This document shows positions 1-29,685 of a stretch of 32,000 nt of DNA, piece by piece; position 1 is the stretch's first letter, and each line of letters opens with the position of its first letter. The notes beneath the pieces were generated by a model. That model was not told where the DNA came from, searched no databases, and saw only the letters and a program-made list of their open reading frames with translations. Source of the DNA: an archaeon (GTDB taxonomy: Archaea; Iainarchaeota; Iainarchaeia; Iainarchaeales; CSSED10-239); the NCBI GenBank assembly GCA_041657425.1, contig JBBABY010000004.1, positions 69,789-101,788 of the forward strand, in the 5' to 3' direction. Made by a program: the position numbers and the translations under genes.

Positions 1-3000
1 TTTGGTTCTAAAGTTACGCCTTGAGAATTACTTGTAATCTTTATATATTCTGATTCTATATTTGATTTTACATTTGTAATTGTTAATGGTAACACTGTAT
101 TATTCATTAAAATAATATTTGATTTATCTGAATAAGCTTTTGATATATCTAATTGTATCTCTAACTTTTCAGGAATTGTAGAAATTAAATTTTCTGTAAC
201 TAAAAGTTTAGTTGTGCTTGTTCTATACCCTTGTTTTCTTACTGTTATTTCAACTGTATCATTTACATTTGTGGAAGGAAGAGTGAAAACATATGCTCCT
301 TCTTTATTGGTTTTTCCATCAATTATAGGTTTTGTATTTATTCTTACAAATACACTTGCATCAACTAAATTTAAATTGGTGTCACCAGTTACTCCAACAA
401 CCATTACGTTTGGAATATATGGCACAATTGTTTTTGGTAAAATATCAACAGTCAATTGTTTTGAAGGTTTTAAATCAAATAATATCTTCTTTGCAAATAT
501 TGTGTCTCCATTTGAAAGAATAGTTATTGTTAATTCATCACTAATATCATTTACTACACTTAAATCAACTTCTCCATTAACTGTTCCGTTTGCTAAAATA
601 TTTCCTAAAGGAATGTTTGAGAAATCAGTATCAGTTATTGGATAATCTCCACCTGAAGTTATTGTATAACTATTTAATTTAATTGTTTGACCTGCAGTTG
701 TTATTATCATTACTGCATCTGTTGCTGGTTTTTGTAAATTTAATCTAAAGTTAAATTTATAATCTGTTCCGTCTTTTGCTGTAAACTTATCAATTACTCT
801 TTTTTCTAAACCAGTTGTTTTTTCTTTAAATGAAAATGAATAGCAAACTCCATTGTCACAACCTGTTGAATCTCCAACAGAGATTGCTAATTTTTTTGCA
901 TAAGCATAAAGTGCTTGCTTATTTACTGAACTTACGCTTGTTCCTAAAACATTATCTTGCGGATTTCTTAAAACTGAAGAACCTTGTTGATATTCTGCTC
1001 TAAAGAAAATTGCTTGATTTGAAGTTGCGGTGTCTGTTACAACAATATCTGCATCAATAATATATGACCCTTCTAAAGGGTTATCGATTGTTACATTAAA
1101 CCACTTTGCATCTTTTCTTACAATTGAAATTAAATCTTTTGATTCTCCAAGACAAGGAGTGTAATTTATAGATCCAAGAACTTTACTTCCTGCATATCTT
1201 ATTTGTTTAATATAAACTGAATCTTCTGAAACGGAATGTGTTTTACTATCACAAATCTCTCCTTCTCCTGTTCTTATATGCGCTACTGCTTTTAAATATT
1301 TTTTATCTACATTTAAAATAAATCTTGCAGTTGCTGATTGCCCAGGACCAACGCTAGTTAATTGATCTCCATTACTTGCAAAATATCCTATAAATTCTAT
1401 ATTTGCGGAACTTGAAATACTTGTTGGGATTACAATTGTTTCTTGTAACATGCTTTCTGCATCTACTGAATATTGCTTAGAAATAATTCTTGTTCCATCT
1501 TCTTTTTCTATTACAAAATATACTGACTTGTCTGCTCTTACAGGAATCACTGCAAGACCTGTTTCATTTGTCTCTGTTGTTTTTTCGGGCATTTCTTTAT
1601 TTTTAGAAGCATCATAAACTTTTATTGTTGCTTGTACTGGTGTTCCGTCTGCTTCAATAATTGTTAAATTATAAGTACCTTGACCAATTGCAACTACTAC
1701 GGAAAGATCAGTTGCTTCTCTTTCTTTAACAATAAAATTATTTGACTTGCCTGAAAATTCTCCAGTTATTGCTTCTGCAAAATAAGTGGTGTTGGGATCT
1801 AAATTTGAAATTGTGATTCTGCCATAAACGTCTGTTGTTACAATCTTAACAACACTATTATCTAAAGCATCCCAAATTTTTACTGTTGCATACTCTATTG
1901 GTTGCACATCTTTATCTACGACTCCAACATTAAGAACGCCGGTTGTTGATTGTTCCATACTTTTTAATTGTATTTCTAAAATGTTTGCAGAAATACTTAT
2001 TGTTTGAGTTGATAATAAATATCCATCTTTATCTAATGTTAAAGAATAAGAAACATTTTCTTTAATTGCAAATTGTACATACCCAGTTTCATCTGTTAAT
2101 TTTGTATCTATTATTGCTGCATTCTTTGATAACTTTGCAGTTACTCCTTCTAAATAATTTCCTGTTGTTTTGTCTTTAACTTTTATTTTTATAAAACCAA
2201 CAACATCTTTCTTTAATTTTATTTCTTGAGAATTTAACCCATTAGTAATTTGCTTTGCAACTAATGTCCCGTTTTGATAATCTAATTCTGAGACTCCTGA
2301 ATAAATACCAATTGGATCAGAAATTATTATTTTATATTGCTTTGAAACTACCACTAATTCTGAGGTGAAAATTCCATTTTGATTTGTTTGACCATCTTGT
2401 ACTTTCTTTCCGAATATATCATAAATTGTTACTGACATATTTGGAAGTGGTGGATTTGGTAAATCTTTATCTTTAACAGTTACTATTAATGTCGCGTAAT
2501 TATTATTTTCACTAAATGTTATTTCTCCTGTTGTCCCAATATCTGAAATATTTACTTCGTAATCGTTTCTTCCTGCGACATATACTTCTAAACTTCCACA
2601 GTTCTTTGGAACATTATTTAAAGTATATTCTCCAGATGTTACTATTACTTCTTTTTCAAAATCATTAGTTGTACAACTAAATGTAACATCTAATTCAGAA
2701 GTTAATAATGAACCTGACTGTGTCTTGAATGAAATTGTTTTTGTGGTTGTGTTTTGTGTTCTTTCTAAATTTACTAAATATCCACCTTCTTTTTCTGGAA
2801 TTATTGAAATGAATTCTTGATTATTTGTTAACATATATACACTATCGACTAATTTCAAATCATAGATTTTTGTTTTATCTAGGCCTTCTAAATAAACATA
2901 TCCATCTTTGTCGGTTAACAAATTACGTGGTTGATCATCTAGTGTTGCTTTAAGAGCAATTTCAGAAAGTGAATTTGAAGTATCATCTACAAATCTTATT

Positions 3001-3224
3001 GTAGTTCCATTTGGTTGATCTTTAATTACAAATGAGGTTAATAATAAGAAAATTATTAATGCAAAAAGTGCAAGAATTATTACTGAAAATATAGGAAATG
3101 TTGGAATTCCATTTTTTTCTAAAGGATCAACTAACTTATATAAGTTAATTCCTTTTTCTTCAAGATTATCAAGCATCTCGAAATACTTGTCTTCTAGATT
3201 ATAATAGAATTCTTTTAAACCCAT
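1..3224 (-). CDS. Giant N-terminally anchored surface protein, paralog 2. Only the 5' part is in the window (>1074 aa); the C-terminus lies beyond the left edge.
   Basis: Absent from the ORF track because it runs off the edge. Manual minus-strand translation from the ATG at 3222-3224 gives MGLKEFYYNLEDKYFEMLDNLEEKGINLYKLVDPLEKNGIPTFPIFSVIILALFALIIFLLLTSFVIKDQ... and I read it open down to position 1 (...ITSNSQGVTLEP). The N-terminal motif plus TM helix (about 3024..3107) is homologous to that of 5165..14026. It is followed by ~85-90 aa beta-sandwich repeats with the TDxxGY/F...L pattern (CarboxypepD_reg/PEGA-like), then a block collinear with the big paralog (828..1004 vs 11513..11692). Confidence 0.8.
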   Translation of the reverse strand, partial: MGLKEFYYNLEDKYFEMLDNLEEKGINLYKLVDPLEKNGIPTFPIFSVIILALFALIIFLLLTSFVIKDQPNGTTIRFVDDTSNSLSEIALKATLDDQPRNLLTDKDGYVYLEGLDKTKIYDLKLVDSVYMLTNNQEFISIIPEKEGGYLVNLERTQNTTTKTISFKTQSGSLLTSELDVTFSCTTNDFEKEVIVTSGEYTLNNVPKNCGSLEVYVAGRNDYEVNISDIGTTGEITFSENNNYATLIVTVKDKDLPNPPLPNMSVTIYDIFGKKVQDGQTNQNGIFTSELVVVSKQYKIIISDPIGIYSGVSELDYQNGTLVAKQITNGLNSQEIKLKKDVVGFIKIKVKDKTTGNYLEGVTAKLSKNAAIIDTKLTDETGYVQFAIKENVSYSLTLDKDGYLLSTQTISISANILEIQLKSMEQSTTGVLNVGVVDKDVQPIEYATVKIWDALDNSVVKIVTTDVYGRITISNLDPNTTYFAEAITGEFSGKSNNFIVKEREATDLSVVVAIGQGTYNLTIIEADGTPVQATIKVYDASKNKEMPEKTTETNETGLAVIPVRADKSVYFVIEKEDGTRIISKQYSVDAESMLQETIVIPTSISSSANIEFIGYFASNGDQLTSVGPGQSATARFILNVDKKYLKAVAHIRTGEGEICDSKTHSVSEDSVYIKQIRYAGSKVLGSINYTPCLGESKDLISIVRKDAKWFNVTIDNPLEGSYIIDADIVVTDTATSNQAIFFRAEYQQGSSVLRNPQDNVLGTSVSSVNKQALYAYAKKLAISVGDSTGCDNGVCYSFSFKEKTTGLEKRVIDKFTAKDGTDYKFNFRLNLQKPATDAVMIITTAGQTIKLNSYTITSGGDYPITDTDFSNIPLGNILANGTVNGEVDLSVVNDISDELTITILSNGDTIFAKKILFDLKPSKQLTVDILPKTIVPYIPNVMVVGVTGDTNLNLVDASVFVRINTKPIIDGKTNKEGAYVFTLPSTNVNDTVEITVRKQGYRTSTTKLLVTENLISTIPEKLEIQLDISKAYSDKSNIILMNNTVLPLTITNVKSNIESEYIKITSNSQGVTLEP

Positions 3225-3370
3225 TTTTGAAAACCTTTGTTCATTTATTATTGAAATTAATATATTATATATATTATATCACTAACAATTGTTTATAAAT
3301 ATTGCTTTTTCTATATAATATACTAATTGCTCAAAATGTTTATAAATTAATACTAATTAACTGGTAGAAG

Positions 3371-5098
3371 TTACTCGTTTGGGGGGGTGCAAGGCGAACC
3401 TCCACCTGGCGCAACATAATTTTGACATTTCCAAGCATTTCCTGTAAAATCGACATTCCCTAAACTTGTTGGCCCTAAATAATTATTACCAGTTACTGAT
3501 AACTCGCTCCAAACCCCATTTGGTGGGAAATAAAAAGGCGTATATCTGTCTTCTAAAACTACATTTATTGTTACAGGAAGATTTTGATATTGCTTTCTCA
3601 CTCTGTATCTTGGGTCCGTCTCTATAAATTGTAAGATGATTTTCGCGAAATCCATTTCTGAACAACTGAGATCATAGGACGCGCCTGTTGCTTCACCAGT
3701 AGCTACAATTGGTGGAGATAGATTTGTATTTGCATTATACCAAGTAAATAATCCTGGCATTTCCCAAAGCATTTTAGATCTTTGGGTTTCTGAATTTAGA
3801 AATAAACCAAGACCTCCTGAAACTCCTGACATATCTGATAACTCTGAAAATCTAGTTTGACTAAAACTTGCAGGTGCAGGTCCCGGAGCGTCCCCAAAAA
3901 CGTCTTTGGTTCGTTTTTTATCCATAATTACTTCTACTCCAAAAATATTTAAATCGGAAACTGTGTCGCCTTGCATAACTAAACCGTTATTGTAAGTCAT
4001 TGGGTCTATTCTTGAAGAAATGTTTTCATTTAAAACTGCAGTGTATAGTTTTTCAAATTGCGATTTTGGATCAGAAGTATCAAATAAATTATAGTTGCCA
4101 AAAGGTGGGAAAACTACTCCGGAAAGTGCTGCAGGAGTTGGAGTTGCAATTGTTTGATCGGGAATGTTTTGGCATTGAGAAGCAATTCCTGTAGTTGCTG
4201 GGGTTGCAAAGAAATCTGTTCTTGGTGCACAAGTGCCTGGATCACAAAAACCAAGTCTTGCTTGTTCCAGAGTATTATGAATTTCTGGATTGAATAATCC
4301 TGTGTCGCTTTCTGCAACTGCCGGGTTATCTGATCTTTCTGCATCACGACTATGAGCAATATTTCTTGCAACTCTAAATGCTTGAAAACCACGCCATGGC
4401 ATGTATATCTTGTATATCTGTCTGCTTAGAACTGGTCTTTGAATAACTTGATTACTTTTATATTTTAAAACTGTGACCACTGGTAAGATTTCATAATCTA
4501 CATCAGAAAGCTGCGTAGTATCAAGTGTTAAATAAAATGAACCAACGCAATTATTATCATCAGTTTCACAATCAATAACATCAATTTTCTTTCCACCGTC
4601 TTCAAACATTTTCACAACAACATTTTCAAAAGTGTTTTCGTCATCTATGTCTGTTGGATCTCCATTTGAGCCAACCTCATACCCCGTGTGTTCTTCAATT
4701 GTAATATTATACCCTGGAGGATTTTCTGAATATTGAAGATTAAATATTAATCCTTGAGCAAAGTAAGATGCAAAGTTTTGTTCAAAGAATGTGTCTTGAA
4801 CAAAACTATCTACAAAATAATTCCAATTTTGATCCATTTGTTTTCTAGTTAAATTAAACGAAGTTTTTGATTTACTTAATTCCCATTGCGATCTTAAGAC
4901 AATTAAAAATGTATTAAAAGCATCTGCTCTTGCAATATCTCCTACAGTCATCAAGTCGGACATTGATGATTGATCTTGAATAAGAGAGAGATATGTTTCT
5001 TCTGTATTTATCATATTAAAAATAAGAGCTAGAGATATAGATACAAGTAGCAAAGAAATTAATGCAGTAAATAAGGTAAATCCTTTTTGTGATTTCAT
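3371..5098 (-). CDS. Large (575 aa) secreted protein with a class III (type IV prepilin-like) signal peptide. Candidate pilin-like, tip-adhesin or bindosome-like surface subunit.
   Basis: The N-terminus MKSQKG/FTLFTALISLLLVSISLALIFNMI has a short basic leader, Gly at -1, then a ~24-aa hydrophobic helix. This is the prepilin peptidase (PibD/EppA/FlaK-type) substrate pattern, but with Thr rather than the bacterial Glu at +5. The remaining ~545 aa has no motif I recognise. Paired Cys are present (CDPGTC, CQNYVAPGGGSPC). Confidence 0.7.
   Translation of the reverse strand: MKSQKGFTLFTALISLLLVSISLALIFNMINTEETYLSLIQDQSSMSDLMTVGDIARADAFNTFLIVLRSQWELSKSKTSFNLTRKQMDQNWNYFVDSFVQDTFFEQNFASYFAQGLIFNLQYSENPPGYNITIEEHTGYEVGSNGDPTDIDDENTFENVVVKMFEDGGKKIDVIDCETDDNNCVGSFYLTLDTTQLSDVDYEILPVVTVLKYKSNQVIQRPVLSRQIYKIYMPWRGFQAFRVARNIAHSRDAERSDNPAVAESDTGLFNPEIHNTLEQARLGFCDPGTCAPRTDFFATPATTGIASQCQNIPDQTIATPTPAALSGVVFPPFGNYNLFDTSDPKSQFEKLYTAVLNENISSRIDPMTYNNGLVMQGDTVSDLNIFGVEVIMDKKRTKDVFGDAPGPAPASFSQTRFSELSDMSGVSGGLGLFLNSETQRSKMLWEMPGLFTWYNANTNLSPPIVATGEATGASYDLSCSEMDFAKIILQFIETDPRYRVRKQYQNLPVTINVVLEDRYTPFYFPPNGVWSELSVTGNNYLGPTSLGNVDFTGNAWKCQNYVAPGGGSPCTPPNE
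5009..5098 (-). other. Class III signal peptide / pilin-like N-terminal helix of the 575-aa protein
   Basis: aa 1-30, MKSQKGFTLFTALISLLLVSISLALIFNMI. The predicted cleavage site is after KG. Confidence 0.6.
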
Positions 5099-5137
5099 AA
5101 TATTTATTTCTTATTTATTATATAATAGATAATAAGA

Positions 5138-5160
5138 ATAAAAGAAAAAGGTTTAAAAAA
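5138..5160 (-). terminator. Oligo-T tracts immediately 3' of the giant gene (archaeal-style terminator)
   Basis: The minus strand reads CCCTTTTTTAAACCTTTTTCTTTT directly after the stop codon at 5165-5167. Confidence 0.35.
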
Positions 5161-5164
5161 GGGT

Positions 5165-8100
5165 TTATGCAACCTTTGGAATTGCATAATCATCATAAAG
5201 AGCATAACCACTTGATGGAATTACTACTTCACAAATTCTATTTATTTTTACGTCATGAGTAAATCTACTATTTAATGGTTCAAACTCAATATTTGGACCA
5301 AATTGATGAATTACATAATCGATTCCATCTTTTTTCCCAACATATAATATTGCATGTGATGGTTTTACACAATCTATCCCTTTTGTTATTCCAATTGTTA
5401 TAATTGCTCCAGGAACTAAATTTTTCTCGAAATCAACAATACTATCTGTTTTTGCGTCCCAAACTACTTTATTATTTTTTCCAAGTTCCCATGCATCTCC
5501 ATTTACATATTGTCCAATTCCAGGATAATTTTTTTCTGCAACTTGCTGTGCAAATGTAGAACAATAATCTGCAGAAATTGCAGAAACATCTTCACATGCA
5601 GATTTTGCAGGAGCTTTTGGAAATTTACAAGATTCATAACTTTGTAATTTCGGTTCTTTCTCGTTATACATATTTACTTGTATTTGTAATAAATCTGCAG
5701 AGACTTCTACTGCTGAACCTGGAGTTTCTGGATCTGTTACTGTTGAACCAGGATTTTCTGAATCTGTTTTTTCAGTTGTGTCTTCTGGAGTTTTTTGTGG
5801 AGGAGTTCCTTGTAATAATTCTTCTCTATGTTCAGAAGTTAATATTTCTTTTATTTCTTTATTATTTTCATAAACTATTTTATTATCTTCTGCAATAGAT
5901 GGAATTTCATTAACTATTTTAAAGTTAAAATTATTAGTTTTTTTATCAATCTCAACTTTATACCATGTTCCGTTTCTAAATTCAGTAATTGGCATCGAAC
6001 TATCTGCTCCATATGCTAAACCATTATACTGCCCAGTCTCTGCAGAATATTCTAGTAATCTATTTCCTAAATAATTAGATAACACAACAACTCCAATATC
6101 TAAACCAATTTTTCCTGTGGTTCTACCGAATTTAGTCCATTTAGTTACCCCGGCAGATGCTAACCCTTTTGCAGATAATTTAACTTCATCTATGTTTTTT
6201 ACAAGATCATCAGTTACATCATATAATCCTGCGGTATTTTTTGGACCCGCTTTTATATTTTCTAAACTATTTATAGTATTTTCAGCACCTTCTTTTGATT
6301 TCGTAAATGCATCTATTTCATTATCTAATATTTTTAGTTTCTTTGTTTTATTTATCTTTGAAGAACTCCATCCACTCTTTTCTAATTTTGCTTTTGCAGC
6401 AAGTGATTTTTCTAATTGGTCTTCAGCTAATTTCTGAGTACCTTTTGCTTCTCTTAAATAATCATCAACAGTTTCTGCAGATAAAGTTTTAGGAATTGTA
6501 GTTGTGATTGTTGATGGTGGTGCAAGATTAGTTCCTAACAATTTATCTACATCATCAATTGCAGAATTTATTTTTGGTGCATCAGTTGTTATTTGTTTAG
6601 TTAATACATCATCTAATTGATATTCAGTTGGTGACTTTAGGGTTGCACCACTTTTCATATTTGTTTTAAGTGTATCTATGTCTGTAATTGCGCTTGTTGT
6701 TTTTGTTTGTGCTGTAATTAAATCATCATAAACTTGATCTGTTCCTGCTGCTGGTGGCGTTGGATAATCTGCTTTTATCTTTGCATCTATTGTTTTTAAA
6801 TGAGTATCTAGTGCTGCTTTAGAATCATCTGTTGCTTTTACCAAATCATCAAAATTTCTTTTGGGCATTATGTTTGTTGTTGATGTTCCACCTGATTTTG
6901 TAAATTGATTTAATCTATCAGTGAATAACTTTTTATCTGGCGTAATCCAATTCCCTGGGGTATCATAACTTCCAGTAGTAATTATTCTTTCAAATTCTGT
7001 TAATTCTGCATTAGATAATGCATTAAATTTAATCATATCTAATTTCCCAGAAGTTGTTATTTTACTAAATAGGCTTCTAACTGCAGCGTCATCTGACATT
7101 CCTGTGGCTACATTAACTCCTGGAGCAAATCTAATATCTGTTGGTGCAACATATGGTGCGCCTGTAGGTTGACTCACATAATTTTGAAGATACCTGTATT
7201 GATTATTTAATTGTCCTTCAAATAATACTTGTGTAGATGGTGTAAGCCCTTTTGTTGTGGTTGTTGTTGTTGAACTTATTCCTGTTGCATTTATTTTTGT
7301 TGTTGTTGGATATGTTGGATTTGGATTTGGGGTAGTTTGAGTAATCGGATCTAAATCTGCACCCATAATTTTATCTGAAATTGCTATTCTGTCTGCAGCG
7401 GGTTTATTTTCTACTATACTTGCACCTACTGGCCCTGCAACCATTGCAACATTTTTTGGAGAAAATACTTTCCCAATTAATTCTCCAACATCGCCAGTGA
7501 TTTCTTTTGTAAATCCTTTAATTATTTCCCAAATTGGAATTTTTATTTCGGTCTCTTCTAGATACATTGCTCCTGCAGGAAGACCACAACCTGGTGCACA
7601 ATTCCAAGCAATGTCTGAAATAATTTTTGCTTGGCCTAAAATTGGTAATAAATTCCAAAGAGTATCTACTCCAGCAGTTGCTAATGCACAAGGAGTTAAA
7701 CATCCTGCTAAAAATGTGCCAGCTCTTTTTGCGGCTCTATCATTATTTGCTTTTATTTCTGATTTAGTTTTTTCAAAGTCACATGCCTCTGGTTTCTTGA
7801 AAATGGTTAGTTTGTCTCCAACGTTTTTATTGTATTTTTCTAAAGTGCTACAATATGCTTCTTTGTCTTCTTTATTGTACGCTTTATCCCAATCTACATA
7901 TGCATAGAAATTACTTTCAGTTTTTGCTTTGTCTTTTCCTAATACTTCCATTTCCTTTTGAGTTTGTTTTAGAAGGTCTTGAGGGGTTATTCCATAGTTT
8001 AATAATGTAATATTTGTGTCGCTTTTTCTTATTGAATTAATTTTACCAACTGTTGAATATTTGCTTTCTGCAGTTATTACTAATTGCTTATTACTCCAGT

Positions 8101-11100
8101 TTGCAATTTCTGAAATGTCTCCTTGTATACAAATATTAAAGTCTGTACCTTTGTCTTTTTCTAAAATCATTGAAAAAGTATTTTCTGATTCTTTTCCTTG
8201 GTAATTAAATTTAGTTTTTACTCCAGGTAATTCTTGAGTTTTAATTTCTATTTGCTCAGTAATTGCAGAAGTTGCGGTTACTACTGTACAGGTACTTGTT
8301 GGAAGTAACTGAAGCTTATCTGTTTTTGCTTTTAGACTTAATGCCCCAAAGTCTTTATCAAAAGATAAAATTAACATATAATTCCTATCTTTAGAAATAC
8401 AAATGTCTGCGGGATTACCTTCGATTATGTTTTTAATATCCTTTGCTGTTTGATTAATAAATTCGCTTGGATAATTAACGTCTTCATTTTCTGTGGGTAT
8501 TCCAAACTTATTATTTATAATTACATTTATTGTTTCTGCTTGAGGATCTTTTGGTTCTCCAGGATTCTTAAAATAAAGTTTAGCAATTGCTGTTTTATCT
8601 TCAGCAATTTCTCCAACAGAAATATTTAATTGACTAAATTTCTTTTGTTCATTTGTCTTTAATTGGAATCTGTCTTCTGTATTAAATACGCCTTTTGAAA
8701 CTGGAAGACCGAAATCTTTATCCCCACTAATTACTGTTAACCATGTGTCTCTTGTATTTGTTTTAGAAAGTGCATTATCTATATCTTTTGGCAAATACAT
8801 CCTTATATTTTCTATACTCTTCTTACATTGTTCAGTTTTATTTGCATCAATTGTTACAAAGAAATATGCATTTTCTGCATCAAGTTTTGTTTGGCCTTTT
8901 GTTGCAACTGACCCGTCAATTGTTATCTTATATCTTCCACAACCATTTATTTTATTATCAATATGTATTACCACTCCGCCAGCTATTGAAAGCCCGCCTG
9001 TTGTTGCCCCAACATTTGGCCTTACCATAGCCCCTTTTATTGTTGGAAACTTTGTTGCTTCTTTATTGTTTTGAAGCACAGATAAAACTGTATTATCTGA
9101 TAATGAATCATTCTGAACATATAATGGAATATTTCTAAACTTTGCTAATTGCTCAGAAGTTAATAACTCTGAAATTGGACAACTGCCATTTATTGCAGAA
9201 GTCATAGAACAATTTGTTTGATCTACTTCGTCAGCAACTTGTCTTGATGCATTTATTACCATTGTATGCATTTCTTGTATTTTCTCAGCAATGAACTCTG
9301 CAGCATTAGAACTATCACAATATCCTTCTTGTTTACAATCTGTAACAATTATTGGGAATGTAAAATTTGCAGTTTCGCTATCACTATCTGCTGCTTCTCC
9401 ACAAATTTTTACACTTACATCTTCTTCTACTCTTTTAAAATCTGCTGTAATATCTGGATTTATTTCTTCAACTTCTAGTGAAAACGAAAGTCTATCAGAA
9501 GTTACAACACTTCCAGGAGTATTGTTTAATGGCGCGCCAATTAATCTTAATGATTGATCTATTTTTGCAGGGAAATATTCCAGAGGTTTTACTTTTAGAA
9601 TATATGGAACCGTTTGACCTGAAGCAATAAACCCTGTAGGACTCTGAGGAATCAACCATAATTGAGTATTTTTTCCAAATGCTTGATCATAAAGATTAGG
9701 AGAAATATTTGCACTAGGGTCAAATGTAATATAACCAACTGGATCAGCACATTGATTTGTAACATTGATTAACTTAGATTTTTCTTCTCCAACTTTTGCA
9801 TAGATGTATATTTTCTTTTGATCAACTTTTAAACACCCAGCTGATGAAAATCTAAAGTCTACAGTGAATCTTGCTTCTATTGGTTCCTTAACCCCTTTTG
9901 CATCTGCTGTAACTTTATAGTAGAGTGTTGCATAAGTTGCTTTATCTACTTTTCCTTCATATCTTATAATTATTTTTTTTGATTGACCAGGTTTTATTTC
10001 TTCAAAACTTATAGGTTCAATTTTGTCTTGGATATTTGAAGGTAGTTTTTCTTCAAATCTTGAAATCTGTATATTTTTTACTGGATATTTACCATTATTC
10101 TTTAATAAAAACATTGTTTGATTTGCAGCAGGCGTTACATCCATTTCTTGAGTTAATGAAACTAAAGATAGTGGAGGAGACACACTAATAGTTTTTGAGA
10201 AATCAACTAAATCTAAATTAAGTTTTGTGTTCTCTAAAGCATAATATGAGTTTCTCCAGGCAATTTCAAATGCGTAACTCTTTGTTGATTTTCTTTCTTT
10301 ATTATTTCTTATTGTTATTGTATAATCTGTTATTTCTTCATTAGGTTCAATTGTTATTGTTGGAAGATCAATTTCTATATTTTCGTCTTTCTTAATTGTT
10401 GTGCCTTTTGCTTTTAATAATTCTGGAGTGATTATTAATGACTTTGAACAATTATTTACGATTGTCGCAGTTATTTCATTTTCTGAACCTTCACTTATTC
10501 CAACATAAGCATAGATTGCTAATGGTTTGATTTCTAGACAATCGTTCTTTACTATTCCTCTATAATAATTAATAGTTATCTCTTTAGCTACTTGCTTGTT
10601 TCCTACAAAACCATAAATGGTTAAAATTGATTTCCCTGTTTTGAAATTTATCTTTGGATCCACTGTTGAAAAGATTTCTATAACTTCTGGAGCGCCAGGA
10701 TTTAATGCAATTGGTAATTGTGTTTCTGTTGTTAGTCCAATTACTTTATCTATCTCTGTTATCGTGTATGTTAAATCTTTAACTTGTATGCTTCCTTTGT
10801 TAACAAGAGTTATCTTCTCTGACTCTTGACTAATGCTTTCTCCAAAACTTATATCTATACTATCTGGTGCGTAGATTAAACCGGTGTCTGCAATTGTTAA
10901 TTGTTTTGTAAATGAAATATAACCTGGAGCACTAACTTCCATATTTGGTTTTGCACTTGAGAAGTTTTGATTAATAATATATTTTCCGTTCTTTCCTGTT
11001 TTTGTACTGGAAATCGTATCTCCGAACTCGTCTGTTAATTTTACTAATGCATTATTAATTGCAGTTTTGTTATCTGCATCTTGTACATCTATAATTATTG

Positions 11101-14026
11101 GAGAATTATATGCAATGATTTCTGGAACTGTAATTATTAGATTTCTCTTTTGTTTTATTTCAAAACTTAATCTTTTTTCTATAACTTTACTATTAAATGT
11201 ACTTTTTATATCTAAGTAAGTTATTCCTGTATCTTTTGCTTTAAATAATATATATTGTTTTCTGTTCACGCCTGATTGTATTACAAATACTGAAGAACTT
11301 AATTTTGTATCTTGTGAATCAAGACTAGAGGTTGGAAACAATTCTGTTTCTTGATAACTTATTAAACCAACTATTGGCTTACTATTGTCAGTTTGTGCTT
11401 CTATTGTTAGTTCTCCATTTAACACACTGTAATAACTCAATTCAAGAAGATATAAGTCATCTTTTACTGCAAAGAAACTTTCTTTTGAATAATCAAAATT
11501 ATCTTTATCTAAAAATTTGTAATCAACACAAAGATTATTAGAGCACTCTGCTGGACTCTCTAAAATGTTTAAGGATAAATCTTTTGTTTCTGCATATAAG
11601 CTTTGTCGTGAAGAATTATTTTTTGAAGTTCCAAGTATCGTGTCTTCAGGATCTCTGTATGTTGAACCAGTAACATCACACCATGCTCTATACTTGATTG
11701 GCATTGTGCCGATTTCACTTGCTTTAACTTTTAACATTACTTGCTTGTTTGTTAATGTACTACTTGGCCAATATAATTCTAACCATTTATTTAATTGATT
11801 TGGTTGTCCAACATTATCTGTATCAATTGATTGTTCTCCAGAATTATAAGTTGTAGAATATTTGTAGGTTATTGTGTCTGCTTTAAATCCGGTTATTCCA
11901 TAAGTCATGTTTTCAGAATCAGACTCGAAATATTCTCCTGCTCTGAAATGCACTCCGCAACTTTTTGCATCAATTGGGAGTTGTAAATCAAAGACAAGAT
12001 AGTAATCTGCATCTTTACTTAGAACACTTGTTGGATTATTATATATATCTCTTAATTCTATAAATGTAATTACTGGATTATAATCTATAACTGATGGTTT
12101 AAGAGCTACTGATAATTTTTCGCTATCTCCAACAACTGCAGAAACAATTGTTGTCGCGCCATTTTCATCTGTATATTCTATTAATAAATCCCTATAGCCT
12201 TGAGTATTGAATGACAATGGAGTTTCATCAAGACAGGTGTCTGAAAGAATCTCTCCAAGTTTTGATTTTACAACAACACATCCGTTGGTTACACCATTTC
12301 CATGTAAGTCTTTTAATTCTAAAGTAACTATCTTTGATGCATCGTTAATTGTTAAAATTACTTTATTGTCCTTAAATGGATCAATAGTTATTTCCTTAGA
12401 AGCATTAGCATCTCCAACAACCCCTACAACATTATATTTTTCTCCTGATTTGGTATAGACTGAAGTAAATCCTGTAAGATCAACTTGAAGTGGGCCTAAG
12501 CCTATTGGAACAAACTTTCCTCCTAATTCTTTGTATACTAAAACATTCGCTTTCGAGATTGGATTATTTACTCCATCATAAACATAAATTGAAAGCTTGT
12601 AACTATTATCTGTAGTAATTTTTTCTAAACTAATTTCTAAATCATTTGATAAAGAAATATTCACATATTGTTGTAAACAAAGATATCCATCTTTACAAGC
12701 AGTAACTACATATTCTTGATTTTGATCAAGACCATTAAATATTACTTGCCCATCCATTTCTGTGGTTTTAGAAGATAAAAGATTTCCAGTTAAACTGTAT
12801 AATGAAATGCCTACTTGATCTAATGGGCCAACTAAGTTTTCTGTAACTTTAACTTTTAAATCAGAACTTCCTGCAATCATCTTTATAGTAATTGTTTCTT
12901 CGCTTTTTAATAATCTATATGTTACATTGTACGTATCACTGTCATAAATTCTATAGCCTTCTTTAGTTACTACAAAACGAATTGCTTGCCCAGCATTTAA
13001 TGTAAATGTAGTTTTACCTAATTTTGTAATCTCGCTACCAATTATTTCTCCAACAGCATTATAAATGATAACATTACAATCATCAAGTAAATCCCCGTTT
13101 TGTGTTGTTGTTATTAATATTAATCTTGATTGCGTGCCTGCTAATTGAGCAGTGTTGTCGTATTCTAAATTTATAGTTCTAGTTTCATTAGAACTTGTTA
13201 ATTTTATTGTTTGAGTTAATGTTTCATAACCGTCGCTAACAATTGTTAAAGTTATATCTTTTCCTATAGGAACCCCTGTAAAATCAATCTCTCCCAATGT
13301 ATTTGGTTCTCCAATCTTTTCTTGAGCTTGACCATTGATTTTATAATCTAATGTTGCTGAGTATTTACTTACAGATTTATTAGTTTGGCTATCTGTAACT
13401 ATTAATTTTAAATTGCCAGTCTCTATTAATTCATTAAATTGTATAACTAATGGACCATCTCCGGAATACATAAATGGTTTCTCATAAACTTGAAATCCTT
13501 CTTTTGTTGCTGTGACTGTATAATCTTTTCCCGGACTTATTGCAATTCTTCTCTTTTCTCCATTACTTATTATTTCATTAAATTTAGCTTTATCATTTAA
13601 ATCTCTTATTGAAACTTGCACATAATTTAATTTATTTCCTGAATAATCCATTATGCTAAACTCAACTGTTGTCTTTGTTGCAAAGTTGATTACTAAAAAA
13701 ATGATTATTGCTAAAATAATTATTGAAAGACTTGTAACGAAAGCAAAAGAAGGAATTCCTTTATCTTCAAGAAAATCATTTAGTTTGTTTAAGCCTATTC
13801 CTTTCTTACCTAACCAATCAGAAAATGCAAAATACCTATCTTCCAAACCTCTATAGATTTTGCCAAAAATATTTCCCTCTTGCTGTTTATCCATTTCATT
13901 ATCTGAAAAATCATTATTAACTTCAGAATAATCTTCAATTTCTTGATTATCAGAAATCTCTTGATCTTCTAAATCAGAAAAATCCTCTTTTTTTGTTTTC
14001 TTTGGTTTTGCTTTTTCTTTTGCCAT
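5165..14026 (-). CDS. Giant (2953 aa) N-terminally membrane-anchored multidomain surface protein with a C-terminal NlpC/P60-CHAP-like cysteine peptidase domain
   Basis: An uninterrupted 8862-nt ORF. aa 1-91 form a Lys-rich then acidic cytoplasmic tail that includes a motif shared with the paralog. One TM helix spans aa ~92-116. aa ~120-645 hold about six CarboxypepD_reg/PEGA-like beta-sandwich repeats. aa ~650-2095 hold further beta-sandwich-like modules of the ITLVNKGS.../ITATIVNNCS.../FLLKNNGK... type (CARDB-like pattern). aa ~2103-2205 are hydrophobic, Gly- and Cys-rich segments, followed by a Thr/Pro linker and a helical region. The last ~158 aa carry a Cys-His-His papain-fold signature. 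Confidence 0.9.
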   Translation of the reverse strand: MAKEKAKPKKTKKEDFSDLEDQEISDNQEIEDYSEVNNDFSDNEMDKQQEGNIFGKIYRGLEDRYFAFSDWLGKKGIGLNKLNDFLEDKGIPSFAFVTSLSIIILAIIIFLVINFATKTTVEFSIMDYSGNKLNYVQVSIRDLNDKAKFNEIISNGEKRRIAISPGKDYTVTATKEGFQVYEKPFMYSGDGPLVIQFNELIETGNLKLIVTDSQTNKSVSKYSATLDYKINGQAQEKIGEPNTLGEIDFTGVPIGKDITLTIVSDGYETLTQTIKLTSSNETRTINLEYDNTAQLAGTQSRLILITTTQNGDLLDDCNVIIYNAVGEIIGSEITKLGKTTFTLNAGQAIRFVVTKEGYRIYDSDTYNVTYRLLKSEETITIKMIAGSSDLKVKVTENLVGPLDQVGISLYSLTGNLLSSKTTEMDGQVIFNGLDQNQEYVVTACKDGYLCLQQYVNISLSNDLEISLEKITTDNSYKLSIYVYDGVNNPISKANVLVYKELGGKFVPIGLGPLQVDLTGFTSVYTKSGEKYNVVGVVGDANASKEITIDPFKDNKVILTINDASKIVTLELKDLHGNGVTNGCVVVKSKLGEILSDTCLDETPLSFNTQGYRDLLIEYTDENGATTIVSAVVGDSEKLSVALKPSVIDYNPVITFIELRDIYNNPTSVLSKDADYYLVFDLQLPIDAKSCGVHFRAGEYFESDSENMTYGITGFKADTITYKYSTTYNSGEQSIDTDNVGQPNQLNKWLELYWPSSTLTNKQVMLKVKASEIGTMPIKYRAWCDVTGSTYRDPEDTILGTSKNNSSRQSLYAETKDLSLNILESPAECSNNLCVDYKFLDKDNFDYSKESFFAVKDDLYLLELSYYSVLNGELTIEAQTDNSKPIVGLISYQETELFPTSSLDSQDTKLSSSVFVIQSGVNRKQYILFKAKDTGITYLDIKSTFNSKVIEKRLSFEIKQKRNLIITVPEIIAYNSPIIIDVQDADNKTAINNALVKLTDEFGDTISSTKTGKNGKYIINQNFSSAKPNMEVSAPGYISFTKQLTIADTGLIYAPDSIDISFGESISQESEKITLVNKGSIQVKDLTYTITEIDKVIGLTTETQLPIALNPGAPEVIEIFSTVDPKINFKTGKSILTIYGFVGNKQVAKEITINYYRGIVKNDCLEIKPLAIYAYVGISEGSENEITATIVNNCSKSLIITPELLKAKGTTIKKDENIEIDLPTITIEPNEEITDYTITIRNNKERKSTKSYAFEIAWRNSYYALENTKLNLDLVDFSKTISVSPPLSLVSLTQEMDVTPAANQTMFLLKNNGKYPVKNIQISRFEEKLPSNIQDKIEPISFEEIKPGQSKKIIIRYEGKVDKATYATLYYKVTADAKGVKEPIEARFTVDFRFSSAGCLKVDQKKIYIYAKVGEEKSKLINVTNQCADPVGYITFDPSANISPNLYDQAFGKNTQLWLIPQSPTGFIASGQTVPYILKVKPLEYFPAKIDQSLRLIGAPLNNTPGSVVTSDRLSFSLEVEEINPDITADFKRVEEDVSVKICGEAADSDSETANFTFPIIVTDCKQEGYCDSSNAAEFIAEKIQEMHTMVINASRQVADEVDQTNCSMTSAINGSCPISELLTSEQLAKFRNIPLYVQNDSLSDNTVLSVLQNNKEATKFPTIKGAMVRPNVGATTGGLSIAGGVVIHIDNKINGCGRYKITIDGSVATKGQTKLDAENAYFFVTIDANKTEQCKKSIENIRMYLPKDIDNALSKTNTRDTWLTVISGDKDFGLPVSKGVFNTEDRFQLKTNEQKKFSQLNISVGEIAEDKTAIAKLYFKNPGEPKDPQAETINVIINNKFGIPTENEDVNYPSEFINQTAKDIKNIIEGNPADICISKDRNYMLILSFDKDFGALSLKAKTDKLQLLPTSTCTVVTATSAITEQIEIKTQELPGVKTKFNYQGKESENTFSMILEKDKGTDFNICIQGDISEIANWSNKQLVITAESKYSTVGKINSIRKSDTNITLLNYGITPQDLLKQTQKEMEVLGKDKAKTESNFYAYVDWDKAYNKEDKEAYCSTLEKYNKNVGDKLTIFKKPEACDFEKTKSEIKANNDRAAKRAGTFLAGCLTPCALATAGVDTLWNLLPILGQAKIISDIAWNCAPGCGLPAGAMYLEETEIKIPIWEIIKGFTKEITGDVGELIGKVFSPKNVAMVAGPVGASIVENKPAADRIAISDKIMGADLDPITQTTPNPNPTYPTTTKINATGISSTTTTTTKGLTPSTQVLFEGQLNNQYRYLQNYVSQPTGAPYVAPTDIRFAPGVNVATGMSDDAAVRSLFSKITTSGKLDMIKFNALSNAELTEFERIITTGSYDTPGNWITPDKKLFTDRLNQFTKSGGTSTTNIMPKRNFDDLVKATDDSKAALDTHLKTIDAKIKADYPTPPAAGTDQVYDDLITAQTKTTSAITDIDTLKTNMKSGATLKSPTEYQLDDVLTKQITTDAPKINSAIDDVDKLLGTNLAPPSTITTTIPKTLSAETVDDYLREAKGTQKLAEDQLEKSLAAKAKLEKSGWSSSKINKTKKLKILDNEIDAFTKSKEGAENTINSLENIKAGPKNTAGLYDVTDDLVKNIDEVKLSAKGLASAGVTKWTKFGRTTGKIGLDIGVVVLSNYLGNRLLEYSAETGQYNGLAYGADSSMPITEFRNGTWYKVEIDKKTNNFNFKIVNEIPSIAEDNKIVYENNKEIKEILTSEHREELLQGTPPQKTPEDTTEKTDSENPGSTVTDPETPGSAVEVSADLLQIQVNMYNEKEPKLQSYESCKFPKAPAKSACEDVSAISADYCSTFAQQVAEKNYPGIGQYVNGDAWELGKNNKVVWDAKTDSIVDFEKNLVPGAIITIGITKGIDCVKPSHAILYVGKKDGIDYVIHQFGPNIEFEPLNSRFTHDVKINRICEVVIPSSGYALYDDYAIPKVA
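5168..5641 (-). other. NlpC/P60-CHAP superfamily-like papain-fold domain (C-terminal 158 aa of the giant protein)
   Basis: DYCSTFAQQV (Cys2822, codon 5561-5563) ... PGAIITI ... PSHAILYVG (His2891, codon 5354-5356) ... DYVIHQ (His2907). Order and spacing resemble DCSG...GDLVFF...HVGIY...IHA of NlpC/P60 endopeptidases. Confidence 0.6.
5708..5767 (-). repeat. Two tandem 30-nt units (26/30 identical) in the linker preceding the peptidase domain
   Basis: Plus-strand units are tactgctgaacctggagtttctggatctgt and tactgttgaaccaggattttctgaatctgt. They encode TDSENPGSTV and TDPETPGSAV. Confidence 0.85.
7229..7342 (-). other. Thr/Pro-rich low-complexity linker (probable glycosylated hinge) inside the giant protein
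   Basis: aa ~2229-2266, ITQTTPNPNPTYPTTTKINATGISSTTTTTTKGLTPSTQ. Confidence 0.7.
7562..7720 (-). other. Internal hydrophobic Gly/Ala/Cys-rich segment of the giant protein (possible membrane-interacting element)
   Basis: aa ~2103-2155, GTFLAGCLTPCALATAGVDTLWNLLPILGQAKIISDIAWNCAPGCGLPAGAM. A second hydrophobic stretch, NVAMVAGPVGASIV, lies at 7412..7453. Confidence 0.45.
12092..13669 (-). repeat. Array of ~85-90 aa beta-sandwich (CarboxypepD_reg/PEGA-like) protein repeats, diverged at the DNA level
   Basis: A recurring pattern V.V.D..G.P......L......G...TD..G...F..L......Y.V.A.K.GY. Examples are VTATKEGFQVYEKPF, VVTKEGYRIYDSD, VVTACKDGYLCLQQ and TIVSDGYETLTQT. Confidence 0.6.
13679..13858 (-). 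other. Conserved cytoplasmic N-terminal motif plus signal-anchor TM helix shared by both giant proteins
   Basis: IYRGLEDRYFAFSDWLGKKGIGLNKLNDFLEDKGIPSFAFVTSLSIIILAIIIFLV here, compared with FYYNLEDKYFEMLDNLEEKGINLYKLVDPLEKNGIPTFPIFSVIILALFALIIFLL at 3024..3206. Confidence 0.75.
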
Positions 14027-15310: not shown

Positions 15311-15688
15311 CTACTTATAATATGTATCTAATGATTTTTTAATTAATTCAATATCATGATTTTCTTGATGATTCTTTAGATAAATATCTATAAAAAGAAT
15401 TTCTTTTCTTTCTTTTGATAAATGCCAAATTACTCTCGCGCTATAATCTTTATCATCAGATATTCTCATTCGTGATTTGATTGCAATAAATTTAGAATAC
15501 TTCTCTCCAAGTTGTACCCTCTCGTTTCTTTTTGGAGACTCTTTTAATAGTTCTTCTTTTCTTGTTAAAATCGTTTGCTTAATTATTTCAAAATCTTTCA
15601 CTAAACATCTAGAATGTTTCTTTAAAACCTTATCAAACTTATGTTCAAAATTAGAAGCATTTTTAGCAACACAATCAATTGATTCCAT
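15311..15688 (-). CDS. RelE/ParE-superfamily (HigB/Gp49-like) toxin candidate, partner of the upstream DUF4065 protein
   Basis: The C-terminal pattern ...YSARVIWHLSKERKEILFIDIYLKNHQEN... is typical of the RelE-fold core strands. It starts 10 nt downstream of the DUF4065 gene. Confidence 0.6.
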   Translation of the reverse strand: MESIDCVAKNASNFEHKFDKVLKKHSRCLVKDFEIIKQTILTRKEELLKESPKRNERVQLGEKYSKFIAIKSRMRISDDKDYSARVIWHLSKERKEILFIDIYLKNHQENHDIELIKKSLDTYYK

Positions 15689-15698
15689 TGCTAATAAC

Positions 15699-16187
15699 CT
15701 ACTCTACTAGTTTTTCTAAGGACTCTGCTCTGTAAAATACTAAGTCATAATCTATTATTTCCTTATCTTTAGAAACAATATAAGGATTATCTTTGTGAGA
15801 TAAATTTGATATTTGAGTCGCAGAAAGATTTCCTAATTTTTTTATAACTTTATCAATAGTAGAGATTTCTTCTTTTGATAATTTACTTAATTTGGGAATA
15901 TCTAAAATCTTATACTTTGTGTTTTGTGATAACTGTTTAGTTTCTATTTTATTTTCCTTTTCTAGTTTATTAATTATTATTGCGATATGTACTGGGGCAG
16001 GACCAAACTCAATCTTTCTATAATCTTCATTTGTAATTGATTTATTGTTTTTTTTATAGTGATTAAAATCAGAAAAATATAATAATTTATATAATACGGT
16101 TTTTCCAAAATTTGGATTAGAACTACAATTAAAAATAATATAATGAACCATTTCACTTAATTTCTCAGAATTATAATTTATAGTCAT
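15699..16187 (-). CDS. DUF4065 / Panacea-domain (SocA/PanA-like) antitoxin
   Basis: GKTVLYKLLYFSDFNHYKKNNKSITNEDYRKIEFGPAPV plus the C-terminal ...LSATQISNLSHKDNPY... match the characteristic KLLYF.D...G..IT...Y....GPVP and SH...PW blocks of DUF4065. Confidence 0.8.
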   Translation of the reverse strand: MTINYNSEKLSEMVHYIIFNCSSNPNFGKTVLYKLLYFSDFNHYKKNNKSITNEDYRKIEFGPAPVHIAIIINKLEKENKIETKQLSQNTKYKILDIPKLSKLSKEEISTIDKVIKKLGNLSATQISNLSHKDNPYIVSKDKEIIDYDLVFYRAESLEKLVE

Positions 16188-23996: not shown

Positions 23997-24052
23997 TAAT
24001 TATGAAAAAAGCAATGGCTACACAAAGAACAAAGATGACGGTATCTAATTAT
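23994..24052 (+). repeat. 59-nt block, copy 1 (8 nt upstream plus the first 17 codons of methyltransferase paralog 2), 56/59 identical to 24786..24844
   Basis: tgataattatgaaaaaagcaatggctacacaaagaAcaaagatGacggtAtctaattat; capitals mark the three mismatches. Confidence 0.9.
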
Positions 24053-29558: not shown

Positions 29559-29590
29559 ATTTGTATTTATGAGAAAAAGACATATAAATA

Positions 29591-29604: not shown

Positions 29605-29685
29605 AAATTTTGGAAAAAAGGTATATTAAGCTTCAAATACACAAAATACTTATTATAGTAAACAAATTACAAAAAACCAAAATTT

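Follow-up and report, generated by a model that had tools for sequence, protein, structure and literature searches.

The stretch of DNA analysed here (the window) comprises 32000 nucleotides of contig JBBABY010000004.1 (GenBank assembly GCA_041657425.1, positions 69789 to 101788). Positions 1..14026 (44% of the window) are taken up by three co-oriented genes on the minus strand, two of which encode giant putative surface proteins, here named G1 and G2, that flank the gene for a pilin-like protein, PIL. The open reading frames (ORFs) are those described in an initial annotation made from the sequence alone, and the peptides quoted there as shared by the two giants translate exactly from 11513..11692 and 828..1004. 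The genes and spacers are arranged as follows:

1..3224, minus strand: G2, a paralogue of G1 cut by the window edge (first 1074 of 2317 residues)
3225..3370, minus strand: spacer between PIL and G2, 146 nt, AT-rich
3371..5098, minus strand: PIL, 575 residues, with a class III (prepilin-type) signal, MKSQKG followed by FTLFTALISLLLVSISLALIF
5099..5164, minus strand: spacer between G1 and PIL, 66 nt, AT-rich (spacers of 25-260 nt are found here in most related loci)
5165..14026, minus strand: G1, the first gene of the cluster (2953 residues; stop codon included)

The GC content of the window is ∼30%, at which a stop is expected about every 13 codons; the probability that a frame of 2953 codons stays open by chance is therefore ∼1e-106, so that G1 has to be a real gene. 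The G2 frame stays open between 3278 and the window edge, its Met lying at 3224. The public NCBI gene call for G1 (WCX82_01060, 2828 residues) begins at Met126, cutting off residues 1-125 (13652..14026), which explains why the 2953-residue protein had no exact match in look-ups. This deposited start is probably wrong, since it drops the N-terminal motif and the sole transmembrane (TM) helix, both of which are conserved in all orthologues. PIL and G1 were also found at 100% identity in assembly GCA_041678985.1 (contig JBAYND010000005.1), and again in JGI, ENA and Logan assemblies. The names borne by the PIL homologues (Candidatus ainarchaeum sp., Candidatus Iainarchaeum, Diapherotrites archaeon) place the contig in the small-celled DPANN phylum Iainarchaeota (Diapherotrites); judged by sequence similarity, a bacterial origin is excluded, and the archaeal origin first supposed was right.

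Extent and synteny of the gene cluster

Rather than a self-contained three-gene locus, as had been thought, the window holds the upstream end of a ∼44-kb Iainarchaeota cluster made up of genes for paralogous giants and one pilin-like protein. On the NCBI contig G2 could be completed to 2317 residues (locus L002, 10513-17466; identical to the window G2 over the common part), and its gene is followed by that of a co-oriented giant of 1873 residues, G3. The series G1 (∼3100 residues), PIL (558-598), G2 (∼2400) and G3 (>1500) was also present on ENA contigs of 440 and 130 kb. When one genome per GTDB species was scanned with the PIL alignment, 59 loci were obtained. Their ORF maps showed a giant of 2400-3100 residues upstream of the PIL homologue, and downstream a giant of 2200-2850 residues (3046 in one locus) followed by another giant. 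The complete giant-PIL-giant triad was visible in 19 loci, and in most others a contig end cuts one of the giants; clear exceptions were few, locus L059 having no giants and L026 and L030 no downstream giant. Dozens of Iainarchaeota/Diapherotrites genomes, among them the complete genome of Candidatus (Ca.) Forterrea (CP045477.1), have G1, PIL, G2 and G3 in this order. A conserved synteny of this kind had been proposed as a test in the initial annotation, and the outcome was positive.

The giants are orthologous by position. In phmmer searches with G1, the upstream genes scored 200-6000 bits, as against 35-100 bits for the downstream genes; G2 gave the reverse pattern, and the N-terminus of G3 matched third giants best. 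Homologues of G1 numbered 12 in 5.8 billion clusters, and its orthologues measure 2677-3133 residues. A metagenome scan with the G3 N-terminus yielded two overlapping loci (L068 and L106) of the 977-kb contig Ga0074198_1000002, which were merged to 39 kb. The gene order there is PIL (581 residues), G2 (2386), G3 (1759), G4 (1007, with a Sec-type signal), G5 (2476), two signal-peptide proteins (155 and 724), G6 (2113) and two small multi-pass membrane proteins. With G1 added, the cluster contains at least six giants and extends over ∼44 kb. For the proteins downstream of G3 in this merged locus, Pfam gave no family beyond CarboxypepD_reg/SpaA. A C-terminal module is common to G2, G4 and G6, the PFDG..GYGT motif of G2 is also found in G5, and G5 bears an internal Ala/Gly-rich, TM-like stretch.

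Two irregularities were seen in public assemblies. In locus L006 (599-9954) the G1 orthologue is split into ORFs of 2541 and 433 residues, which may reflect a frameshift, an assembly error or a pseudogene; similar splits occur in L057 and L045. Contigs with the cluster were also found in bins labelled Chloroflexi, Falkowbacteria, Chloroflexota, Thaumarchaeota and Micrarchaeota (L030, L031, L034, L036 and L054). Since all of these contigs bear Iainarchaeota-like genes, the labels are probably binning errors in public metagenome-assembled genomes (MAGs).

Architecture of the giants and of the pilin-like protein

The segments of G1, G2 and PIL that could be delimited up to the middle part of G1 are the following:

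13739..14026, minus strand: predicted cytoplasmic N-terminal tail of G1, residues 1-96, with a Lys/Glu/Asp-rich leader and the motif FGKIYRGLEDRYF..KGIGLNKLNDFLEDKGIPSF, kept in G1, G2 and G3 orthologues
13676..13744, minus strand: sole TM anchor of G1, residues ∼95-117 (Kyte-Doolittle 3.06, the only strong hydrophobic segment)
12086..13675, minus strand: G1 proximal stalk, residues 118-647, a predicted array of prealbumin/CarboxypepD_reg/CnaB-like beta-sandwiches (weak Pfam matches to bMG3, SpaA and PEGA; aligns with G2)
11132..12085, minus strand: G1 block common to G2, residues 648-965, delimited by alignment, with the pattern H.R.G...D...KW...YRAW..R.P.D..LG...K..LYA...C....C
10889..11086, minus strand: G1 CarboxypepD_reg domain, residues 981-1046 (PF13620)
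7736..10888, minus strand: G1 middle part, residues ∼1047-2097, with Ig-like domains containing N.C motifs and a Cys-rich region including YCD (invariant columns of the alignment)
4865..5086, minus strand: PIL N-terminal hydrophobic-to-amphipathic helix, residues 5-78 (DSSP on the AlphaFold2 model)
3036..3224, minus strand: G2 N-terminal motif (MGLKEFYYNLEDKYFEMLDNLEEKGINLYKLVDPLEKNGIPTF) and TM anchor, the latter at residues 45-63 (Kyte-Doolittle 3.16)
450..1415, minus strand: G2 copy of the block common to both giants, residues 604-925 (profile comparison and alignment)

At the N-terminus of G1, G2 and G3, a conserved module precedes a single, strongly hydrophobic helix (Kyte-Doolittle 3.1-3.3). 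The module reads Y..LE.KYY..D.L..KGI.L.K..D.LE.KGIP[ST]F in G1 and G2, and ..TGLYKITDKIDK[FV][MV]PSF in G3; the extra Lys/Glu/Asp-rich leader is a feature of G1 in the window's clade. No family in Pfam or NCBIfam matched the module. With one helix and without a cleavable signal, the giants would most simply have a type II (N-in) topology, the bulk of the protein being outside. The cysteine content (34 in G1, many of them invariant, invariant ones in G2 too, and eight invariant in PIL) fits such an extracellular bulk, as had been supposed initially, and so do the distal hydrolase or cadherin domains of some orthologues described below. The idea that the giants have very long class III signals ([KR]G before IP[AS]F, ahead of the TM helix) was rejected, the G3 orthologues having DK[FV][MV]PSF, without Gly.

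A '..RGIPSL + TM' module was also seen at the head of dispersed CarboxypepD_reg proteins of 1600-1900 residues in an unrelated archaeal MAG (GCA_053535675.1, 47% GC; locus L124, 799-5727 and 10001-15601, beside FtsZ and ArgRS genes); the anchor module is therefore more widespread than this cluster. In distant G1 orthologues (L021-L041, some with an upstream exosortase-like gene), the pattern G[NT].[ILV][NS]P.[IV][TS][LF].F.[DE]QF is kept right after the TM helix.

The part that follows the anchor would form a stalk. PF13620 scored above its cut-off of 32.3 bits in both giants, with 44.7 bits in G1 (E = 1.7e-11) and 67.2 bits over four stretches in G2, and weak Pfam matches to SpaA, SdrD_B, bMG3 and PEGA were also recorded. 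The best PDB matches of the G1 family profile were CnaB-type domains of fibronectin-binding proteins (E = 0.001). Giants anchored at the N-terminus and carrying CarboxypepD_reg beta-sandwiches, one of the initial proposals, are thus what the searches describe. BLAST detected no internal repeats within G1, which indicates that the stalk domains are highly diverged. For the middle part of G1, Pfam gave only weak matches to AgI_II_C2, NPCBM_assoc and ASH, and searches of PHROGs and NCBIfam with the pieces of this protein were uninformative throughout.

That G1 and G2 are related had been claimed from their domain order and the quoted peptides, and the sequence comparisons agree. BLASTP gave three collinear matches between them (E = 7e-7, 3e-6 and 2e-8), and a profile-profile comparison of the two ortholog families with hhalign gave a probability of 100% (E = 3.2e-87) over 1201 columns. 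On these alignments, G1 and G2 are true paralogues across roughly their first 1300 residues; beyond this part, N.C and YCD motifs are kept in both. The block common to G1 and G2 contains 14 invariant columns in 25 aligned sequences (H.R.G...D...K...R...R.P.D...YA...C....C...Y), and no relative of it was found among PDB sequences or in Pfam, NCBIfam or PHROGs.

The initial annotation had also recognised PIL as a neighbour with a class III signal. NCBI names it a 'prepilin-type N-terminal cleavage/methylation domain-containing protein'. Its N-terminus, MKSQKG followed by FTLFTAL, is kept in 68 homologues, and the series K/R/Q-G-F-[TN]-L-F-T-A-L is nearly invariant in 41 aligned homologues and 32 loci (residues G6, F7, L9, F10, T11 and A12, in addition to the invariant cysteines). 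As in class III signals, a short basic leader, here ending in Gly, is directly followed by a hydrophobic stretch of ∼20 residues. The usual family models gave scores below their cut-offs: Pfam N_methyl reached 14.1 bits (cut-off 21.2; E = 0.036), and NCBIfam ComGF, ComGD, GspH and ComGE gave sub-threshold matches (E 0.005-0.3; ComGF 17 bits versus 80). At position +5 of the mature protein PIL has Thr, conserved across the homologues (F-T-L-F-T), instead of the Glu that marks major pilins of the bacterial type. This Glu is also absent from tip pseudopilins (GspK) and from many archaeal pilins.

The AlphaFold2 model of PIL, obtained from 41 sequences, had a mean predicted local distance difference test score (pLDDT) of 86 and a predicted template-modelling score of 0.80, and consists of an N-terminal helix of 74 residues and a globular part of the alpha/beta type. 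When the latter was compared with Foldseek, no pilin was found in 350542 PDB chains (best E = 0.64), and the best match in BFVD had an E of 0.37. Identity among homologues is 84-95% in the first 75 residues and 25-45% in the C-terminal half. Judged by its sequence and predicted structure, PIL is a class III-signal-like protein with an unmatched fold, fixed between G1 and G2.

The exchangeable distal end of G1

Identity between orthologues is lowest toward the C-terminus, strongly so in G1 and mildly in G2. Five segments could be delimited in the distal part of G1:

7559..7735, minus strand: weakly hydrophobic Gly/Ala/Cys-rich segment, residues 2098-2156, ending W....CGLPA (C2109, C2147 and P2150 conserved)
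5168..7729, minus strand: hypervariable distal module, residues ∼2100-2953 (drop in windowed identity)
6047..6142, minus strand: Gly-zipper-like helix
5828..5995, minus strand: small beta domain
5168..5689, minus strand: C-terminal tip, residues ∼2780-2953, with Cys2822, His2891 and His2907/Gln2908 invariant in the alignment

After the Gly/Ala/Cys-rich segment, the position of which is hydrophobic (Kyte-Doolittle 1.5-1.9) in 14 of 25 G1 orthologues and in no G2 orthologue, the order is a Thr/Pro-rich linker, a long helical region, the Gly-zipper-like helix, the small beta domain and the tip. Relative to its nearest orthologues, identity of the window G1 falls distally from 55-70% to 20-40%. 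The change is abrupt in the orthologues P0008 and P0006, which are 83-92% identical across ∼1950 columns and then 26-48%, with different tip domains.

An NlpC/P60 tip had been assigned to the window protein in the initial annotation. Such a tip does exist in the orthologues P0008, P0010 and L003 (Pfam NLPC_P60, E = 2.5e-24), at the same position as the window tip; the window protein itself gave no match to that family. Nevertheless, the C2822, H2891 and Q2908 (H2907) residues are invariant in nine window-type tips and in a related family of small proteins, and their order is that of the papain-like/NlpC-P60 triad. Aligned with hhalign, the window-type and canonical NlpC/P60 tips have their Cys, PG and His motifs in register, with an E of 0.065 and a probability of 0.9%. 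With a deeper profile of the window-type family, the best PDB match was Tae2, an amidase effector of the type VI secretion system (T6SS) that acts on peptidoglycan; its E of 0.19 is not significant. A scan of 1.84 billion representatives gave ∼40 stand-alone proteins of 116-320 residues with the window-type Cys/His core (P0091-P0133), which have no Pfam family apart from one Peptidase_C92 match (E = 0.01) and are probably papain-like amidases, to judge by their conserved residues. Taken together, these three lines of evidence, each of them weak, suggest that the window tip is probably a divergent amidase of the NlpC/P60 superfamily.

Other lineages carry other tips. A Glucosaminidase (glycoside hydrolase family 73, GH73) domain was detected above cut-off in L053 (37.4 bits) and weakly in L042. 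A common class of tips aligns with the weak GH73-like tip of L042; that of L053 does not align with this class. Profile searches against PDB sequences gave nothing significant for the window-type tip, the block common to G1 and G2, the whole G1 family or the common GH73-like class. Among the G3 proteins, that of L068 ends in a Pfam Cadherin domain (43-47 bits).

Beside the cluster, the flanking-gene groups that recur over several loci, giants and PIL apart, were two among the larger groups of the list. One is LemA, which lies upstream of G1 in the window; it was rejected as a component of the cluster, since it adjoins only in the window's near clade (6 loci). The other encodes a compact exosortase/archaeosortase-like membrane protein and lies directly upstream of the G1 orthologue in 10 distant loci that form one large subclade, at these positions:

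L024, 1011-1496
L028, 579-1139
L031, 2-922
L037, 1832-2422
L038, 34-615
L039, 378-944
L043, 1280-1771
L046, 482-1081
L053, 983-1540
L058, 309-851

These exosortase-like proteins scored 16-28 bits with Pfam Exosortase_EpsH, one match being above cut-off, and they share the motifs LCTG, N..RI and TH[DN].LFR, which supply a Cys/Arg/His set. No ORF of this kind was found in the window or in the near clade, and no cluster protein examined has a C-terminal sorting signal or C-terminal TM helix.

The rest of the window (14.1-32 kb) contains ordinary genes: those for LemA, a low-molecular-weight phosphatase, a Panacea-type antitoxin, phosphoenolpyruvate synthase (PpsA), a DUF2207 protein, a GDSL hydrolase, a flavodoxin/ferredoxin protein, three paralogous methyltransferases, ParE, an XPD/Rad3 helicase, a YbaK-type editing protein and an Lrp/AsnC regulator. 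No tRNAs were found in the window. The SocA/Panacea-domain antitoxin (162 residues, Pfam E = 6e-22) is followed by a family-less ORF of 125 residues, and this pair (15311..16187, minus strand) may be a Panacea-type toxin-antitoxin system. The S-adenosylmethionine methyltransferase genes, which gave weak matches, lie at 22093..22902, 23993..24772 and 24794..25549 (plus strand), two of them in tandem; the ParE-family toxin gene (23658..23996, plus strand) overlaps the start of the second. The regulator, of 372 residues (28524..29642, minus strand), has two HTH_24/AsnC-type wings and is apparently a tandem-duplicated Lrp/AsnC protein. Its divergent neighbour (29686..31272, plus strand) is a 528-residue ORF with no family match.

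Possible functions and comparison with known systems

The evidence favours the view that the membrane-distal ends of this apparatus meet something variable outside the cell, since conserved anchors and stalks are combined with hypervariable, exchangeable heads, and since G1 of some lineages ends distally in a murein hydrolase domain and one G3 has an adhesion domain. That the cluster as a whole specifies a surface apparatus for cell contact and wall breaching is a proposal to which we would give about an even chance of being right. Each giant would be held in the membrane by its one N-terminal helix, preceded by the conserved cytoplasmic module, and would project a stalk, arranged as an array of prealbumin/CnaB-like beta-sandwich domains, with a family-specific head at the far end. 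G1 would be the effector end, with its weakly hydrophobic Gly/Cys-rich segment, its long helical region and an exchangeable tip that, depending on the lineage, would be an NlpC/P60 peptidase, a GH73 glucosaminidase, the Cys/His domain of the window protein (probably papain-like) or absent; G3 could end in a cadherin domain. PIL, with its prepilin-like N-terminus lacking Glu5, would be anchored or assembled beside the giants via its 74-residue helix.

Outside the methanogens that form pseudomurein, archaea are not known to have murein. Peptidoglycan hydrolases from archaea were found to attack and kill bacteria (PMC12352652). For these two reasons, the hydrolase tips hint at bacterial partners or prey. 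It is conceivable, if unlikely, that the cluster specifies a phylum-wide organelle of many giants that docks onto bacteria, not archaea, and opens their murein wall. In such an organelle the stalks of G1-G6 would present the exchangeable heads, G1 would deliver a murein hydrolase and its membrane-active Gly/Cys-rich segment to the target, and PIL and the cytoplasmic N-terminal modules would couple the stalks into one machine.

Several observations weigh against a contact and wall-breaching apparatus. The window tip had no match in Pfam (none to PF00877 at E ≤ 1), NCBIfam, PHROGs or PDB sequence searches, and the AlphaFold2 model of G1 residues 2560-2953 (eight sequences) reached a pLDDT of only 36, too low to be usable. 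Recognisable hydrolase tips are a minority, with one NLPC_P60 and two Glucosaminidase domains in 34 G1 tips scanned; the common GH73-like class often lacks the putative catalytic Glu, G1 of the Forterrea clade has no tip domain, and nine of the ten G3 tips had no family match, the cadherin being present in one. Among window ORFs of at least 100 residues, Pfam searches (18-kb flank) found no prepilin peptidase, assembly ATPase, platform protein or small pilin, and no pilus assembly genes were found in the 10-kb flank of L003 or in the merged 39-kb locus. S-layers under viral pressure are also expected to evolve fast at their outer surface. The conservation across the phylum, which includes lineages proposed to be free-living (cited in PMC5905446), would fit a core envelope role equally well. 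Finally, no host, prey or culture is reported for Iainarchaeota in the literature searched.

A contact apparatus had been preferred to a plain S-layer in the initial annotation. Contact is still favoured here, but with a structural envelope as the main rival, which conservation throughout the phylum keeps alive, rather unlikely as we judge it, yet with a real chance of being correct. The giants would then be the equivalent of an S-layer or sheath, with membrane-anchored stalks and a canopy of the tetrabrachion or SlaA/SlaB types, the tip enzymes accessory and PIL structural, and cell contact would not be their main task. The gene order, the same in nearly every genome of the phylum with enough flank, is typical of core structures; the cluster takes up ∼5% of a minimal genome (PMC5905446); no other S-layer-type gene was seen in the window; and many tips have no recognisable or intact catalytic domain. 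It is harder to explain in this way why Pfam, NCBIfam and PDB profile searches gave no similarity to a known S-layer family, why at least six giants with different heads should exist, in excess of the normal needs of a lattice, why genuine murein hydrolase and cadherin domains are placed distally in some orthologues, and why tips are abruptly swapped between proteins ∼90% identical elsewhere. These same swaps, with a conserved N-terminal part joined to an exchanged C-terminal module, would suit a bacteriolytic or scavenging function, in which G1 is a cell-bound carrier of murein hydrolases that kills or digests neighbouring bacteria or necromass to obtain nutrients, as a weapon and not for lasting attachment to a host, with a tip shaped by an arms race as in polymorphic toxins. 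The NLPC_P60 and GH73 tips, the T6SS amidase effector as best (non-significant) PDB match of the window-type family, and the bacteria-killing archaeal hydrolases mentioned above (PMC12352652) all point in that direction. Such a function is nonetheless distinctly unlikely: most tips have no family assignment or look catalytically degenerate, G2-G6 and PIL are left unexplained, and no small, variable, immunity-like gene follows G1, the next gene being PIL in most related loci. This last test is a weak one, since archaea would need no immunity against murein hydrolases.

The prepilin-like N-terminus of PIL, with Gly at -1 and a 74-residue helix, might instead place the cluster in a type IV pilus adhesion system, with PIL as a minor or tip pilin, the machinery encoded elsewhere and the giants as pilus-associated adhesins similar to PilY1 or the methanococcal DUF2341 proteins. 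Thr in place of Glu at +5 would agree with this, since tip pseudopilins of the GspK kind share that feature. Archaeal type IV pilus loci do have large proteins associated with them (PMC4858521). We consider this very improbable, since no PilB/FlaI, PilC/TadC, prepilin peptidase or major pilin is encoded in the 18-kb flank of the window, the 10-kb flank of L003 or the 39-kb merged locus, the giants have membrane anchors of their own, the globular part of PIL matches no pilin structure, and the family models stay below their cut-offs. The data contradict a mis-assembly or other artefact, and likewise foreign DNA, whether from a bacterial contig or from a viral or mobile-element island; the probability of such an origin is practically nil. 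A few related contigs do lie in bins labelled Chloroflexi, Falkowbacteria and Thaumarchaeota, but independent assemblies (NCBI, JGI, ENA and Logan) contain the same sequence, the housekeeping neighbours (PpsA and XPD helicase) are syntenic in a 440-kb contig, and the cluster sits within contigs of 0.7-1.2 Mb and one complete genome. A viral or mobile origin was rejected on the strength of this synteny, of the long contigs and of the absence of phage families in PHROGs searches.

Whether Iainarchaeota are free-living or host-dependent is disputed (PMC5905446). The cluster would be the most obvious genetic handle on that question, since it makes up ∼5% of the genome, has the same gene order throughout the phylum and specifies proteins whose fast-evolving distal ends bear hydrolase or adhesion domains. 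If the contact proposal is right, the NlpC/P60 and GH73 tips predict a murein-walled partner, while the N-terminal anchor module and the H.R.G...YRAW block would define new families and PIL would contribute a fold that is confidently predicted and has no structural relative. If the cluster instead forms an envelope, it would be a new type of archaeal cell envelope; and docking onto bacteria would make it a cross-domain host or prey system without a described homologue, and would provide a genetic marker of how this uncultured phylum lives. The system is large, conserved and almost wholly unannotated.

The architecture had at first been thought undescribed, but the cluster and the idea of cell interaction are already in the literature: in the paper on Ca. 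Forterrea (PMC5905446), a gene cluster is noted in one sentence and a cartoon, and tentatively read as encoding cell-cell interaction proteins. It is the same cluster, since locus L016 (CP045477.1) has G1 (2671 residues), PIL (559), G2 (2323) and G3 in the same order; its G1 has no tip domain, whereas the window G1 has one. In the passages of that paper that were searched, neither the pilin-like gene nor the paralogy is mentioned, nor are synteny throughout the phylum, a variable distal module or hydrolase tips. Apparently new, in the literature searched, are the fixed synteny throughout the phylum, at least three orthologous families of giants with a common N-terminal anchor module, the obligatory pilin-like partner with an unmatched fold, the hypervariable end of G1 with exchangeable murein hydrolase tips, and the exosortase-like neighbour of G1.

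Among other DPANN archaea, the SPEARE proteins of Nanohaloarchaeota (Hamm et al. 2019; PMC6642349) are likewise giant, mostly extracytoplasmic and membrane-anchored, take up several percent of a tiny genome and have been proposed to act in host contact. They combine serine protease, laminin-G/adhesion and cytoplasmic type III restriction enzyme domains, and are mostly anchored at the C-terminus. None of these defining domains was found in G1 or G2 by Pfam searches of the whole proteins and of pieces; the giants have their anchor, and a short cytoplasmic motif, at the N-terminus, and the two groups have no sequence relationship. The archaeovorins of predatory Omnitrophota (West-Roberts et al. 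2023 preprint, doi 10.1101/2023.11.21.568195), which exceed 10,000 residues and contain glycosyl transferases, tetratricopeptide repeats and NUDIX domains, resemble the giants as very large surface proteins of an ultra-small organism with cell-wall-degrading domains and a role, proposed only, in attaching and breaching; they differ in being bacterial, in their domain repertoire and in having no homology to the giants. With polymorphic toxins (CdiA, Rhs) and Tae effectors, G1 has in common a long, conserved N-terminal part, used there for delivery, and an abruptly exchangeable C-terminal module that in some cases is a murein hydrolase. It differs from them in that no immunity gene follows it and the protein stays membrane-anchored; moreover, none of the toxin-delivery domains FHA, PT-VENN or Rhs repeats was detected by Pfam in G1 or G2.

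A serial beta-sandwich stalk presenting a functional distal domain is also the design of the Gram-positive CnaB/prealbumin adhesins (microbial surface components recognizing adhesive matrix molecules, or MSCRAMMs, as well as SpaA, SdrD and FbaB). These are anchored by sortase to murein at their C-terminus, whereas the giants are archaeal, have their anchor at the N-terminus and carry no sorting signal. The same C-terminal feature separates the cluster proteins from exosortase-dependent surface proteins. PIL, for its part, resembles GspK-type tip or minor pseudopilins and the sugar-binding proteins of the Sulfolobus 'bindosome', which are class III signal proteins not assembled into long pili: all have a prepilin-like leader ending in Gly, a hydrophobic helix without Glu at +5 and a large globular domain. 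PIL differs in that its globular part has no structural relative and in the lack of partner pilins or assembly genes nearby. In tetrabrachion of Staphylothermus marinus, the stalk is a coiled coil, the anchor is C-terminal and the protease is a separate bound protein; the likeness to the giants lies in the overall plan, that of a very long, membrane-anchored archaeal surface stalk bearing hydrolytic enzymes.

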